Origin: Escherichia phage slur14
Sequence record: NC_028448.1
DNA length: 64,000 nucleotides
Direction: 5' to 3' (one strand)
The first letter of the stretch is position 1, and each line of letters opens with the position of its first letter. Under the pieces are notes generated by a model. The model had not been told where the DNA came from. It searched no databases and worked only from the letters and a program-made list of their open reading frames with translations. This document shows positions 39,362-44,254 of this stretch, piece by piece. The translations under genes and the position numbers were made by a program.

Positions 39362-42058
39362 TCAGCCAAACAGGAAGTCTAACGAAGCTTTTTCTTCATA
39401 GTCCATACCAGCCGATTCACACATGCCCGCAAGCGGTTTAACAAACGATTTTTGGAACAAAGTTGAGTAGTCAATCCAAGATAGTACATCAGAACGAATT
39501 TCTTTTGGAAGTTCTGTGCCCGACGGCCAAGCAATGCACTTGTCACCAAATGGATTTCCTTCACGCAATGGAAGAACCATTACTTTATTTCCATCCAAAA
39601 TTGGAGCTACACCCAGACCACTAACAGCTCGACGATAAGTTAGCACACCGCGAATATGGAACGGACATTTAAATCCTGGCCAACCTTTATCATCATATTT
39701 TGCTATATCGTTCGCAGTTTTTACTTCAGCAATAACTTTATAGTCAAGTTGACGATATTCTTTCTCGAAGTTCTTGTAGTATTCTTGGACAGACTCTTCA
39801 CCTTCCTGAAGAATACGACGAATACTTTCTTCGAGAGCTTCTTGCACTGCTTTTGGTGTTGAACTCTGTTGAGTTTCCATACCCATGATTTTTAGATGCG
39901 GTTCAGCAAATCGTTTATCTTCCATATCATAAACGTTCAGAGCATAACGCTTTTTCGCTTTCCAAAATCCACCAACGCCCTTTGAACCAAGTGGAGGGCA
40001 AGAAATAGCTTCACGGTCCATATGCATCAGATGCTCGCGATTATTCATATAATCACATAACTCACGATATGCAACATCAATCATAGGTTCCATCTTTTTC
40101 TTACCAAACTGATTCATGAATTCAACTAAATCATTTTGTTCTTTAAAGCGGTCAAGACCTACTTTTTCAATTACTTTATCTACACAAACATATACCGAAT
40201 CAGTATCACCCGCGGCAATGAAATCTTCACCATCAGTTCCACATACTTTATTTAGATATTCATTAATTTTACGAGCAATCCACTGAATACCGACTTGACC
40301 GAAAATTGTGATAGCAGTAGCATTTCGCAAATCATAGTAACGGAAATGAATATTACCAAGAGCACCGTAAAGGCTGTTAATAAGAATTTTACGGTTCAGC
40401 TGATTTGTGTTAGCAAGTGTAGCCGCTTTTTCACATTCTTCAATCAAACTATTGAGAACAGATTCAGTATAATTCGATAGTTCATTTAAGAAATCATCAC
40501 TGAACTTAACATATCGTTCAACTTCAGGTTTAGTTGAACAAGACCCTGCGCCTTTCATAATAATCTTTTTAATAGCTTCGGCATTCATTTCTTCAGCGAA
40601 CATTTTCTTTTTCCAATCTTTACGCTGGAAAAATACTTTAGCGATTTCCTTTGGAATGATACCTTCTTGATGCTTATCGTACATCCATCCATTCGGAGAA
40701 CAAGAATATTCATCACTCGGTTTAGGAGCTGTTCCTGCGATATATTCATGAATTGGATGAACTTTAAACTGACCACGAATAGTCTCAGGACTAATGTTAA
40801 CCTGACGAATAATGCTCGGATACAGAGACGTCAAGTCAAAACTCATAATATATCGACGAGCAATTGGTTTAGGTTCAAATACAAATGCACCCGGAAAACT
40901 CTGTTTAACATGCGAACCTTGCTGAGGAATAACCTTGTGTTCACCTTTCAATGAGTTAAAAATAATAGCATCCCAAGTTTTAATAGGACTCATTACACCA
41001 GAAAAAGGCATTTTAGCATAATAAGACATACTTAAAACTAGATCGATAAACCCGCGAATTTTATCAATTGCTTGAACTGATTCTACGTCAATGATGTTAT
41101 AACTAATGTATCGTTGATGATTAGTCTCACGGAGTTTATTAATAGGACCGTCGTATGGTAATTTACCTTTTTTGGTTTCATGTTGAGCAACTGATTCCAA
41201 AGAGAATGACGGCAAATTAGTAAAAGCAAATTTCTTGTACAAATCTAAATAATCAAGAATAGATACGCCATCAATAGAATAAATTTCTTTGCTACCGTAC
41301 ATATTTTGAATTAGTTTAGATTTTACCCGACCGATTGGAGAGAAGCGTTTCATACTACGTTCACCGAGAACCATTTTAACGCGATTCATGATATACGGAA
41401 CGTCAAATCCCTCAATATTCCAACCAGTAAAAATAGCAGGTCGTTTCTGTTCCCAAAGATTGATATATTCCATGAGCATATCACGCTCATTATCGAATGG
41501 CATATAAATTACTCGGTCAAGAATTTCTTGAGGAACTTCATCACCACCTTCACAGTCAAGCTTAGCAGCTAACTTTGCATCCCATTTTGATACTGAACCG
41601 TACATTGAATTCAACAAATCAAAGACGTAAAAACGATCGTCAATTGAATCATAATGAGTGATAGCATCAATTTCATATTCAGCTTTCATTGGGTCAGGAA
41701 ATTTATCACCAGTAACCTCAATGTCACAGTTAGCTACACGAACAAATTTTCGGTCATAAACAATTTCTGAACCATATGTATCACTGATATAAGCGAGTTT
41801 AAAATCGTTCATACCGAGAGCTTCGAGACCGATGTCTTCCATTCGTTTCATCCAATCTCGAGCATCTTTCATTGATGGAAATTTTTGAGGAGCGCAGTTT
41901 TTACCATAGATGTCTTTGTACTTTGACTCTTCCTTACAATGCCTAAACATAGTCGGAAGATATTCTACTTCACGAGTACGTTCCTTTCCGTTTTCATCAA
42001 TATAACGTTCAACGATGTTATTTCCGACTGTTTCAATAGAGATATAAAATTCTTTCAT
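39362..42058 (-). CDS. 43: DNA polymerase gp43
   Basis: 898 aa; family B polymerase motifs (DxxSLYPS, YGDTDS) and N-terminal exonuclease domain. Confidence 0.97.
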   Translation of the reverse strand: MKEFYISIETVGNNIVERYIDENGKERTREVEYLPTMFRHCKEESKYKDIYGKNCAPQKFPSMKDARDWMKRMEDIGLEALGMNDFKLAYISDTYGSEIVYDRKFVRVANCDIEVTGDKFPDPMKAEYEIDAITHYDSIDDRFYVFDLLNSMYGSVSKWDAKLAAKLDCEGGDEVPQEILDRVIYMPFDNERDMLMEYINLWEQKRPAIFTGWNIEGFDVPYIMNRVKMVLGERSMKRFSPIGRVKSKLIQNMYGSKEIYSIDGVSILDYLDLYKKFAFTNLPSFSLESVAQHETKKGKLPYDGPINKLRETNHQRYISYNIIDVESVQAIDKIRGFIDLVLSMSYYAKMPFSGVMSPIKTWDAIIFNSLKGEHKVIPQQGSHVKQSFPGAFVFEPKPIARRYIMSFDLTSLYPSIIRQVNISPETIRGQFKVHPIHEYIAGTAPKPSDEYSCSPNGWMYDKHQEGIIPKEIAKVFFQRKDWKKKMFAEEMNAEAIKKIIMKGAGSCSTKPEVERYVKFSDDFLNELSNYTESVLNSLIEECEKAATLANTNQLNRKILINSLYGALGNIHFRYYDLRNATAITIFGQVGIQWIARKINEYLNKVCGTDGEDFIAAGDTDSVYVCVDKVIEKVGLDRFKEQNDLVEFMNQFGKKKMEPMIDVAYRELCDYMNNREHLMHMDREAISCPPLGSKGVGGFWKAKKRYALNVYDMEDKRFAEPHLKIMGMETQQSSTPKAVQEALEESIRRILQEGEESVQEYYKNFEKEYRQLDYKVIAEVKTANDIAKYDDKGWPGFKCPFHIRGVLTYRRAVSGLGVAPILDGNKVMVLPLREGNPFGDKCIAWPSGTELPKEIRSDVLSWIDYSTLFQKSFVKPLAGMCESAGMDYEEKASLDFLFG

Positions 42059-42102
42059 AGATATTCCTTAGTTTATAGCCCGAGTTATTAGGCTCTTGAT
42101 AT

Positions 42103-42132
42103 ATTATACTCCAAATAAGGGGCCGAAGCCCC
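42103..42132 (-). promoter_or_regulatory. Hairpin (GGGGC-UUCG-GCCCC) followed by a -10 TATAAT upstream of gene 43
   Basis: Stem-loop at about 42119-42132 and TGGAGTATAAT at about 42103-42112 on the minus strand. Confidence 0.5.
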
Positions 42133-42136
42133 TTGC

Positions 42137-42358
42137 TTAAATTAGTACTATTTGTCGGTGAAAAATTGTCATTCCATCTGCATTAATTGACTTAACGACT
42201 GCGGTAAAGTGTTTTTGTTCTGGATGAATTAATTTTTGAAATTCTACCTGAAATTTTAGTTGAAGGTTTTCTGGTAAATCAAAAAGTGTTTCTGTTGCAG
42301 AAAGATTATATTTTTCTTTAAGAGACGCCATGTATTCTTGCGGAGTTATAGCAGTCAT
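42137..42358 (-). CDS. Hypothetical protein (about 73 aa) between regA and gene 43
   Basis: Internal ATG one nt after the regA stop; the track ORF 42137..42400 overlaps the regA 3' end. Confidence 0.4.
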   Translation of the reverse strand: MTAITPQEYMASLKEKYNLSATETLFDLPENLQLKFQVEFQKLIHPEQKHFTAVVKSINADGMTIFHRQIVLI

Positions 42359-42359
42359 A

Positions 42360-42728
42360 TTAATTACCAATCGTATATTTAGGAACGAGCTTCCATTCAT
42401 GTTTTTGTTTAAAAGAAATAACTCGGAAGTTATTAGTTAAATCTTTCATAAAAGTTCTTTGACCAGGAACGATTTCAATCAGTCCCCAATCTTCTAACAG
42501 CCATGCAATCGAATCACGACGAACTTCATCTTCTTCTGTCATTTCAACTTGGCGACCATCCATACGAAGCATTTCTTTAAAATGAACGATATAGTATAGT
42601 CCTTTTTTCTGAAGAATATGACAGGACTGATACAGAACTTTATCTTTATTATTAGCAATTCCCATACGAGTCAAAGTTTCTTTTACTTTCAGAAAATCTT
42701 CAGGTTTTTTAAGAGTAATTTCAATCAT
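42360..42728 (-). CDS. regA: Translational repressor RegA
   Basis: 122 aa; MIEITLKKPEDFLKVKETLTRMGIANNKDK... matches T4 RegA as recalled. Confidence 0.9.
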   Translation of the reverse strand: MIEITLKKPEDFLKVKETLTRMGIANNKDKVLYQSCHILQKKGLYYIVHFKEMLRMDGRQVEMTEEDEVRRDSIAWLLEDWGLIEIVPGQRTFMKDLTNNFRVISFKQKHEWKLVPKYTIGN

Positions 42729-42729
42729 T

Positions 42730-43293
42730 TTACCATTCCAATGCTAGTTTTTTGAGTTGTTTCTGTTCTTTTACGTTCTTAGTCACTTCTTTCAAAAAAT
42801 CATCCGTGACTAAACCTTTTAGTTCTTTTAATACTAAAGGAAGTTTTCCATTTTTAGTAAGAATTGATTTATAGTTAATTGCATCATTTGTATTAACTTG
42901 ATACCGTTTAGCAAGTAACTTAATAATCAATACTTCGGTGGAATCTTCAACCAGTTTTGCCCATTTACCATATCTTTTACCACGAGGAACTGCAGCCATC
43001 AGATAATTAAAATGAGCTTCATCACTTAAACCTGATCCAATTAAATTCATAGCATATACAGCTGGCATGCATTCAGGAAATTGTGATAATGCATTCTCAA
43101 CCATGTATTTTGAATAATCTTTTTGAGCAATAGAGCATTTAGTTTTATTATTAATAGCTCCAATTATTTCAAAAAATTCATTTTCAGCTTTTTCTTTAAA
43201 AGAATCAGCAGCGGATTGGACAGCTGTCCAATCTTTTGAATACCAAGCAACTTGATGCTCGTTTAATTGAATATCATCTTCAAATAAGCTCAT
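42730..43293 (-). CDS. 62: Clamp loader small subunit gp62
   Basis: 187 aa from the ATG just after the gene 44 stop (TGATATG). Confidence 0.85.
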
Positions 43294-43294
43294 A

Positions 43295-44254
43295 TCACTT
43301 CCACTGCATTTCACATGCTAACTGAATGAAAAGATAAGCTAGATGCAATTCAGTATTAGCTGCAATACCATGATACTGGTTATTTTCACCAACAATTTCA
43401 TACATACGAATAATACTTTGCGGAGTTACGCGTGTATAGATTTCTTCGGCAAGTTTACCCACGAACCACGAATAATCAGCTGCATATTTTGGTGCTAAAG
43501 CTCTGAGTTGTTTAACATCTTTATTTTTGAGAGACTCAAGAACATCATCAATAGCACCACGATCGTTAGTAACCAGTGATAAAATACCAGCATCCAAAAC
43601 ACCTTTAGATGAATAACTATCGAGCTCGCCAATAGTTTTACGAAAATCAGGAAAATTCTTTTTAACCAAAGCTGCTACAACTTTCATATCAGCTATAGCA
43701 ATTCCTTCATGCTTACAGATTTCAGTCAATCGACGAATCATCTGCTTCATCATTTCAATTTTATCTTCATCGGTCGGTTGACCGAATGTAATAACTCGGC
43801 AGCGTGACTGAAGCGGTTTAATAATACCATCAATATTGTTAGCAGTAATAATAATACTACAGTTTGAACTATAAGCTTCCATAAATGAACGAAGATGTCG
43901 CTGAGACTCTGCTAGCCCTGAACGGTCAAATTCATCAATAACGATTACTTTTTGACGACCATCAAATGAAGCTGCACTGGCAAAATTAGTCAAAGGACCG
44001 CGAACGAAATCAATTTTACAGTCTGATCCATTTACAAACATCATATCAGCATTTACATCATGACACAATGCTTTTGCTACAGTTGTTTTACCTGTTCCTG
44101 GAGAAGGAGAATGAAGAATAATATGTGGAATCTTACCTTTACTTGTAATAGATTTAAAGGTTTCTTTATCAAAGGCGGGAAGAATACATTCATCGATAGT
44201 AGATGGACGATATTTCTGTTCAAGAATGTGTTCTTTTTCATTTACGGTAATCAT
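43295..44254 (-). CDS. 44: Clamp loader large subunit gp44
   Basis: About 319 aa from [17 protein letters not shown]; AAA+ Walker A ([10 protein letters not shown]). Confidence 0.9.

Follow-up and report, generated by a model that had tools for sequence, protein, structure and literature searches.

orf43.1 between regA and gene 43 of Escherichia phage slur14, a probable exchangeable accessory gene of T-even phages

INTRODUCTION

The described systems closest to the locus analysed here are the regA-43 intervals of phages RB18 and T4. Miller and Jozwik (J Bacteriol 1990) reportedly gave the first description of a 'variable orf43.1' beside a 'conserved regA' in T4-like bacteriophages. Phages slur03, RB18 and ime09 carry the gene in their annotation under the names ORF43.1 or gp43.1, where it is described as 'in regA 3' region'. 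A literature search for ORF43.1, gp43.1 and the Pfam family PF25760 returned no relevant paper.

In T4, genes 45, 44, 62 and 43 fall within a region (35,662 down to 27,197) that is strongly MotA-dependent (PMC6024815). RegA autoregulates regA, RegB processing stimulates the synthesis of gp43, and the gp43 operator of T4 is an 18-base hairpin-loop with a -UAAC- loop (PMC3014915). Free-standing endonuclease genes are known to target intergenic sites in T-even phages (PMC2993671).

The orf43.1 gene and the adjacent RNA signals are thus already known, the gene having been named for decades and assigned to a Pfam family, and the signals being textbook T4 elements. The comparison reported here adds that orf43.1 is widespread over the genera of the Tevenvirinae and is not an oddity of RB18 and RB51, and that its translation appears to be coupled to regA almost everywhere. 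Very probably it is a genuine accessory gene that T-even phages can dispense with, a cassette placed precisely after the regA stop codon and before the hairpin that would end the regA message. It resembles the small accessory ORFs of the hyperplastic regions of T4-type phages in being small, group-restricted, variable in presence and dispensable, but unlike these it lies inside the core replication cluster and is apparently coupled translationally to a core gene.

RESULTS AND DISCUSSION

Layout of the locus

The window, that is the whole stretch of 64,000 nucleotides of Escherichia phage slur14 (NC_028448.1) that was analysed, is 100% identical to Escherichia phage slur03 (genus Tequatrovirus) over the 901 bases from 41900 to 42800 and 97-99% identical to many further Tequatrovirus genomes over the same section. 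The following features were located there, in the order of transcription:

42730..43314, minus strand: gene 62 (ORF list)
42360..42728, minus strand: regA, translational repressor, 122 aa (ORF list; slur03, RB18 and T4 annotation)
42360-42362, minus strand: stop codon TAA of regA (sequence)
42359, minus strand: single spacer base between the regA stop and the ORF43.1 start (sequence)
42137..42358, minus strand: orf43.1, ATG start, 73 aa, TAA stop; type A, RB18-like allele
42119..42132, minus strand: GGGGC-UUCG-GCCCC hairpin, then UUAUUU (sequence and fold)
42109..42112, minus strand: GGAG, separating the hairpin tail from the -10 element (sequence)
42103..42108, minus strand: TATAAT, -10 element of a gene 43-proximal promoter (sequence)
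42077..42094, minus strand: gp43 translational operator hairpin AGCCU-AAUAACUC-GGGCU (T4 identity and fold)
42065..42069, minus strand: gene 43 Shine-Dalgarno sequence AAGGA (sequence)
39362..42058, minus strand: gene 43, DNA polymerase, 898 aa, ATG at 42058 (ORF list; slur03, RB18 and T4 annotation)

The regA product of the homologous loci matched Pfam family PF01818. Four bases, GCAA, separate the TAA of ORF43.1 from the UUCG hairpin. The reading frame, the hairpin and the -10 element were all found at the positions given for them in the sequence-only reading that preceded this analysis.

The ORF at 42137..42358 is the already catalogued orf43.1. Its product matched Pfam PF25760, 'Phage RB18 ORF43.1 protein', with 105.9 bits against a gathering cut-off of 27 (E=9.6e-31, residues 5-73 of 73), and PHROG 3826, a family of unknown function, over its full length (E=5.4e-38). 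The RB18 regA-orf43.1 locus is 99% identical to the window in nucleotides, and RB18 gp43.1 is identical to the 73-aa protein of the window; position and junctions also agree, so that there is no difference of substance between the two. Exactly the same protein was present on 88 contigs, and its UniRef name is 'Uncharacterized protein ORF43.1 in regA 3'region'. For every PF25760 member whose genomic context was read, the gene lay in the regA-43 interval of a T4-type phage.

A longer version of the ORF with 87 codons, starting at 42400 inside regA, is annotated in some GenBank records. This start was rejected as an artefact; the frame is closed about 1-5 codons upstream of the orf43.1 start in IME523, CF1 and KM16, and the long version is therefore not general.

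Coding status of orf43.1

The sequence-only reading had considered that the ORF might be a chance open frame in a non-coding leader, and had proposed dN/dS analysis as a check. By the method of Nei and Gojobori, dN/dS was 0.06-0.22 among seven type A alleles, mostly 0.15-0.32 (range 0.04-0.52) among the alleles from Dhakavirus and Gaprivervirus, and about 0.2-0.5 between allele groups where dS was unsaturated; within allele groups the values were thus mostly 0.06-0.3. Third codon positions held 17 of 29 and 24 of 44 variable sites. Length changes inside the conserved core were in-frame deletions of 12 nt in the EFQKEFQ repeat, seen in three alleles (ECML-363, REP1 and NBEco003). Twelve columns, including F26-D27-L28 and E30, were invariant in an alignment of seven sequences, and six (K14, L19, F26, D27, L28 and E30) were still invariant in one of 29 sequences.

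That phages T4, T2 and RB69 function without ORF43.1 would agree with a non-coding spacer that happens to be open, as would the frameshifted or truncated copies in JB75, PhiZZ23, phage 107, KRT47 and KK4, which may be genuine or sequencing errors. However, such a spacer would not be expected to show the low dN/dS values and in-frame deletions given above, a protein motif kept at 23-45% identity between genera while synonymous sites are saturated, a confident AlphaFold fold and a curated Pfam family. The copies that are absent have, moreover, been cut out exactly from stop codon to stop codon and are not decayed. The probability of a chance ORF was accordingly rated as close to nil, and the selection and conservation data already refute it: judged by its pattern of substitution, by a position kept in six genera and by its catalogued status, ORF43.1 is a real gene under purifying selection. 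Purifying selection and the confident predicted fold are also indirect indications that the protein is probably produced in infected cells.

Coupling to regA and expression

The junction between regA and ORF43.1 in the window reads UAA-U-AUG (42356..42362, minus strand), and no convincing Shine-Dalgarno sequence was found upstream of the ORF43.1 ATG. The corresponding junction was UAAUAUG, UGAUAUG or an overlapping UAAUG in JS98, VR7, IME523, CF1, CkP1, KM16, PEi20 and three metagenome contigs, and among the lineages compared only the type B allele of RB51 and Sf24 departs from a stop-restart junction. The type B allele has a spacer of 10 nt with its own AAGG ribosome-binding site in place of the single base. 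Since the junction is kept in every lineage but type B and a convincing Shine-Dalgarno sequence is missing, translation of ORF43.1 is probably coupled to that of regA by termination and reinitiation.

The late-promoter motif TATAAATA was absent near the orf43.1 locus. From the MotA dependence of the T4 region, the probable coupling to regA and the autoregulation by RegA, orf43.1 is expected to be a prereplicative gene whose output follows that of regA. It would be transcribed prereplicatively on the MotA-dependent 45-44-62-regA messages; ribosomes would finish regA at its UAA and start again on ORF43.1, one base further on, and the amount of ORF43.1 would track that of regA, which is itself repressed by RegA. 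The UUCG hairpin would then end or stabilise the regA/orf43.1 message, TATAAT would supply gene 43 with its own transcription start, and the hairpin further downstream would act as the operator for autorepression by gp43, exactly as in T4.

Signals between orf43.1 and gene 43

The hairpin and the -10 element, which the sequence-only reading had taken for elements preceding gene 43, were read correctly there and are ordinary intergenic signals of the T4 regA-43 region. The UUCG hairpin folds with five G-C pairs and a UUCG loop and is invariant in T4, Sf24 and RB18; in other genera its fourth stem pair is G-C, A-U, C-G or G-U. When the UUCG and operator hairpins were compared over 11 lineages, 98% of the cells were paired and 21 cells showed compensatory double changes, while only 19-60% were paired in a control in which the partners were slid by one to three columns. 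Covariation thus confirms both hairpins as conserved predicted structures.

The hairpin is annotated as a 'putative transcriptional terminator' in phage G50. It was not called by a simple consensus terminator scan, and the U tract that follows it, UUAUUUGG in the window, is UUUUU in JS98 and is reduced to AUUU in RB69. Because the tract of the window (UUAUUU) is weak and the scan did not call the hairpin, termination may be partial; the structure is terminator-like, but it may terminate only some transcripts or serve mainly to stabilise the 3' end of the RNA. A search of 41900-42900 against Rfam with E<=10 gave only noise, far under the gathering scores.

The GGAG sequence, kept in 8 of the 11 aligned lineages, corresponds to the recognition motif of the RegB endoribonuclease, and it may be a processing site on transcripts that read through the hairpin. 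The sequence GTATAAT was conserved in T4, JS98, IME523, RB69 and the ERZ and SRR contigs, and TATAAT fits a -10 element of the sigma-70 type (TAnnnT). A promoter scan gave no full sigma-70 promoter at this site, a -35 element being absent. The MotA box has the consensus (a/t)(a/t)TGCTT(t/c)A and is centred near -30, at 11-13 bp from the -10 element. No such box was found at the canonical spacing upstream of TATAAT in the T4-type sequence, where only GCTTC was seen, within the hairpin loop and with 17 nt from GCTT to TATAAT versus 13-15 expected. In CF1, CkP1 and KM16 the sequence TGCTAT is located 12 nt upstream of their -10 element.

Presence, absence and exchange of alleles

The gene was found in at least six genera of the Tevenvirinae and always at the same site. 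Besides the window, it was represented as follows:

JS98, genus Dhakavirus: ORF43.1 homologue at the same site
VR7 and VR20, genus Gaprivervirus: JS98-like ORF43.1 allele at the same site
IME523 and PEi20, genus Kanagawavirus: ORF43.1 homologue at the same site
CF1, genus Moonvirus: ORF43.1 homologue at the same site
CkP1, genus Karamvirus: ORF43.1 homologue at the same site
Salmonella phage KM16: ORF43.1 homologue at the same site
Three metagenomic contigs: ORF43.1 homologue at the same site

These homologues show 23-47% protein identity, and the protein is about 70-80 aa long in all lineages.

T4 (NC_000866) has no orf43.1 and a gap of 78 nt between regA and gene 43, as the sequence-only reading had supposed. 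When the window, T4, RB18 and Sf24 were aligned, the T4 sequence ran from GGTAATTAA directly into GCAAGGGGCTTCGGCCCC, while that of the window continued from GGTAATTAA with T and ATG and ended the ORF with CTAATTTAA, followed by GCAAGGGGC. The difference between the window and T4 is exactly 223 bp, corresponding to the one spacer base and orf43.1 with its stop codon; the block that stands directly after the regA stop in T4 is set off by these 223 bp in the window. The difference is bordered by the similar words AATTAA and ATTTAA, and over the 78 nt that begin with GCAA and lead up to the gene 43 ATG the window, T4, RB18 and Sf24 agree at every base. The same empty site was present in T2, RB69 (genus Mosigvirus) and VR26 (genus Gaprivervirus), so that the comparison with T4, T2 and RB69 that had been suggested gave three phages without the gene. 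The suggestion that the ORF is lineage-specific is correct in that it varies between lineages, but the gene is widespread in the Tevenvirinae and merely absent from T4, T2, RB69 and VR26. Absence from close relatives in which the interval is otherwise conserved, which had been named as an observation against the ORF, was indeed found; it points to dispensability and does not imply that the sequence is non-coding.

The states of the site were counted among about 501 phage records that matched the region with at least 95% identity, which corresponds to the level of the genus Tequatrovirus:

Type A allele (protein 90% or more identical to that of the window): about 175 of about 501 records
Type B allele (78 aa, as in RB51 and Sf24; 45% identical to type A): about 69 of about 501 records
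Neither allele: about 257 of about 501 records, inferred by subtraction

The 'empty' examples that were read had a T4-like span of 678 bp. Type B belongs to the same family as the allele of the window (PF25760, E=3e-30) and shares with it the site, the hairpin and a backbone of 97-99% identity. It differs in that its identity is only about 45% in protein and 57% in nucleotides and its N-terminus is longer by 5 residues.

Nucleotide identities of the ORF and of its flanks were compared for four pairs:

Window and Sf24: regA 99.2%, first 450 nt of gene 43 97.1%, ORF 56.7%
CF1 and KM16: regA 91.5%, first 450 nt of gene 43 93.3%, ORF 49.7%
Window and contig ERZ27245996: regA 71%, first 450 nt of gene 43 66%, ORF 77.6%
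JS98 and VR7: regA 77%, first 450 nt of gene 43 76%, ORF 85%

In the last two pairs ORF43.1 is closer than its flanks, and for the window and contig ERZ27245996 dS was 0.70 in ORF43.1 and saturated in the flanks. Backbones of 97-99% identity, on the other hand, host ORF43.1 alleles that are only about 45% alike in protein (23% for the VR25 form). As the identities of the ORF and of the flanks diverge in opposite ways, the phylogeny of ORF43.1 is incongruent with that of the flanking genes. Within Gaprivervirus alone three states were seen, namely the JS98-like allele of VR7 and VR20, the empty site of VR26 and a divergent form in VR25. The VR25 ORF begins one base past regA and encodes 68 aa, of which only the C-terminal 49 residues gave a profile match; it has the predicted fold of ORF43.1 (hhalign E 1e-4, Foldseek TM 0.59).

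Taken on these comparisons, orf43.1 appears to be dispensable and exchangeable. The simplest mechanism of exchange would be homologous recombination through the conserved flanks, i.e. the 3' end of regA and the GCAA-hairpin-GGAGTATAAT block, and the gene would be lost through a deletion that joins the two stop-codon words. With alleles that move independently of a near-invariant backbone, the locus is a clean natural example of cassettes being exchanged within an operon of core replication genes.

An exactly bordered segment that some phages have and others lack at a single intergenic site, together with the incongruent phylogeny of the ORF, could also be produced by a selfish mobile element or its remnant, e.g. 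a decayed homing-endonuclease gene, that is useless to the phage; T-even intergenic sites are targeted by free-standing endonuclease genes (PMC2993671). However, no nuclease or other mobility domain was found in ORF43.1, its size of about 70-80 aa is constant in all lineages, the protein is under purifying selection, and the conserved flanks suffice for exchange by ordinary homologous recombination. A selfish element was therefore considered highly improbable, and an accessory gene of the phage remains the preferred reading.

The predicted protein

The type A protein has 73 aa, a mass of 8.5 kDa and a pI of 6.25; over all alleles the pI ranges from 4.6 to 6.6, i.e. from mildly to clearly acidic. 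An AlphaFold2 model calculated from the alignment of 29 sequences had a pLDDT of 90 and a pTM of 0.73 and predicted a helix at 6-16, a second helix at 30-44 and a beta-hairpin at 50-58/64-72. A sequence search of the PDB gave nothing at E<=10, and Foldseek with the model against the PDB gave a best E of 0.2 with TM <0.45, so that no fold could be assigned. Foldseek against BFVD returned only members of the ORF43.1 family, PEi26 and VR25 among them. Searches of NCBIfam and PADLOC gave no match, no paralogue was detected within the window, and no nucleic-acid-binding signature was found in the family and fold searches.

An exhaustive profile search of 1.84 billion protein cluster representatives gave nine matches. 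The top match was an artefact caused by a 49x tandem repeat and was discarded as not belonging to the family; the other eight represent the ORF43.1 family and came from T4-like phages wherever their genomic context was read.

Possible functions of ORF43.1

The sequence-only reading had regarded the ORF as a candidate regulator because of its position next to the autoregulated polymerase leader. Such a role was not borne out: identity of 97-99% is kept in RegA, in the operator and at the gp43 N-terminus whichever allele is present, or with none, T4 and RB69 autoregulate without ORF43.1, and the protein is acidic without a nucleic-acid-binding signature. The acidic pI of all alleles argues against direct binding to RNA or DNA.

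A more specific proposal is that ORF43.1 binds the product of a neighbouring gene, either RegA, for which it would be an anti-repressor or a partner, or gp43, and in this way modulates the translational repression of replication genes. The stop-restart coupling to regA in all lineages but type B is consistent with this, as is the constant location of orf43.1 between the two translational repressors. The start region of ORF43.1, AAUUAAUAUGA (AAAUUAUAUGA in type B), resembles RegA targets, and AAUUAAUAUGACU resembles those of gene 44, AAAUUAUGAUU, and dexA, AAAAUUUAAUGUUU (PMC3014915), a class of unstructured A+U-rich targets that take in the AUG and follow no strict consensus. However, the putative partners do not change with allele A, allele B or no allele, the repression by RegA and gp43 was worked out in T4 and RB69, which have no ORF43.1, and the acidic protein shows no RNA-binding features. 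A partner of RegA or gp43 was for these reasons rated as unlikely.

Binding to the sliding clamp (gp45) or to the replisome through the nearly invariant segment (S/T)x(L/V/I)FDL, which would mimic the clamp-binding tail of the polymerase, was also considered. Nowhere is the family better conserved than at F26-D27-L28-x-E30, which the model shows as a short helical turn separating the two helices, and orf43.1 is situated inside the 45-44-62-regA-43 cluster. The sequence TLFDL resembles the polymerase C-termini KASLDFLFG of the window and KASLEDMFDF of KM16; the C-terminus of the RB69 polymerase is SLFDMFDF. A resemblance over five residues is weak, however, the motif is internal to a region folded with high confidence and may be buried, and the VR25 allele has INL instead of FDL. 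Clamp binding by ORF43.1 therefore seems very unlikely.

The pattern of presence and absence and of allele swapping is typical of accessory genes, and the pI of 4.6-6.6 together with the lack of a match to a nucleic-acid-binding family or fold suggests a protein as the target. A tentative guess from this is that ORF43.1 might be a protein-binding accessory factor that tunes infection in particular hosts, by host takeover or counter-defence, and that it would not act on the leader RNA. The near-universal coupling to regA could just as well reflect a functional link to RegA, something that lies outside this guess.

A broader possibility, which must be called doubtful, is that orf43.1 is no neutral passenger but either a functional module of the cluster for replication and translation control or a factor of counter-defence. 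Its protein would be produced together with RegA through obligatory stop-restart translation and would bind one particular partner, be it RegA, gp43, the gp45 clamp or a protein of the host, and the repeated replacement and loss of alleles at this one site would record selection exerted by different hosts. If this were true, the ORF43.1 family would represent a previously uncharacterised and structurally new small regulator. An exchangeable accessory gene is the description that fits the locus best.

The gp43 operator and a variant loop

The gp43 operator hairpin of the window, with a stem of 5 bp and the 8-nt loop AAUAACUC, is identical to that of T4; the UUCG hairpin, the gene 43 promoter and the operator of the T4 regA-43 region are all shared base for base. 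Across lineages the operator stem showed compensatory changes in four of its five pairs, and the loop had the form AAU(A/C/U/G)ACUC. The Shine-Dalgarno sequence AAGGAA of gene 43 was invariant in 11 of 11 lineages, and the first 450 nt of gene 43 were 96.7% identical to T4 in nucleotides, with a dN of 0.003. From this agreement gp43 probably binds the operator of the window and represses translation.

One of the metagenomic contigs, from run SRR23924977, belongs to a T4-like phage and has the gp43 operator AGACU-AGCAACCU-GGUCU. Its best full-length match in the phage collection was 78%, and it thus has no close isolate. The loop AGCAACCU differs from the wild-type loop AAUAACUC at four positions and contains -CAAC-; it is reportedly the 'major variant' loop selected in the original SELEX against T4 gp43. 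Pattern scans for the AGCAACCU operator returned 1 match in IMG/VR and 18 in the JGI metagenomes, none of them T4-like, and a literature search gave no mention of a natural gp43 operator with AGCAACCU. A review from 2010 asked whether any natural phage has the SELEX-variant loop (PMC3014915), and a natural gp43 operator with this loop answers that question. For specialists in RNA-protein recognition the AGCAACCU operator may be of more interest than ORF43.1.

The regA-43 site and the ORF43.1 family

Three states of the regA-43 site occurred within the single genus Gaprivervirus. VR7 and VR20 carried a JS98-like orf43.1, VR25 a divergent ORF of 68 amino acids, and VR26 nothing.

L052:3172-3378, minus strand, 68-aa ORF of VR25
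L051:3436-3521, empty regA-43 site of VR26

The VR25 form was missed by sequence searches and was tied to the ORF43.1 family by fold search and profile comparison only; the family match was confined to the C-terminal 49 residues, and the FDL motif was absent. The best match in the representative search, P0033, was a 'protein' of 3009 amino acids with E=3.5e-44 against the ORF43.1 profile. It was rejected as a relative: a 61-aa unit is repeated in it 49 times without a mismatch, and it reached this score because weak repeat matches were summed. It is an artefact of assembly or translation.

GC3 was 15-26% for orf43.1 in several genera, well under the 26-46% of its neighbours regA and gene 43, as compared at loci L007, L008 (CF1), L009 (CkP1), L006 and L019 (T4-like contig of run SRR23924977). 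The low value is consistent with import from a T-even background of lower GC content. Some GenBank records annotate a version of 87 amino acids (85 in the JS98 group) with a start inside regA (window 42359..42400, minus strand). This is likely a start-codon misannotation that arose from the frame staying open across the conserved 3' end of regA.

Signals upstream of gene 43

The UUCG hairpin and the -10 element of gene 43 flank a GGAG, the motif of the RegB endoribonuclease, which was retained in 8 of 11 lineages.

42109..42112 (window), minus strand, GGAG

Since RegB processing reportedly stimulates gp43 synthesis (PMC3014915), this candidate site could be cut by RegB on read-through transcripts. 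In CF1, CkP1 and KM16 a MotA-box-like arrangement was present, with TGCTAT about 12 nt upstream of the -10 (GATAAAAT or GATATAAT), whereas the T4-type sequence had only GCTTC, inside the hairpin loop and at a non-canonical spacing.

TGCTAT and -10 regions:
L008:1701-1801, CF1
L009:1689-1789, CkP1
L020:3222-3317, KM16

The Logan contig of SRR23924977 had a native gp43 operator hairpin, AGACU-AGCAACCU-GGUCU (L019:2760-2790), upstream of its gene 43. The loop contained -CAAC- and differed at 4 positions from the T4 loop AAUAACUC; it corresponds to the 'major variant' that Tuerk and Gold (1990) reportedly selected by SELEX. No further T4-like example of this operator turned up when IMG/VR and the JGI metagenomes were scanned. 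Whether a natural operator with the 'major variant' loop exists was asked in a 2010 review (PMC3014915).

Frameshifted, truncated and shortened copies

Several copies of type A or B that are near-identical in other respects were frameshifted, truncated or read through the stop codon, namely proteins P0006 (JB75), P0007 (PhiZZ23), P0005, P0049 (phage 107) and P0001 (KK4/GADU22) and the KRT47 match H128. Such copies are pseudogenes, or else they reflect sequencing errors in homopolymers. Three type B alleles (ECML-363, L027:553-777; proteins P0031 and P0032) had in-frame deletions of 12 nt in helix 2, within its repeated EFQKEFQ segment, and this helix therefore tolerates the loss of about one turn.
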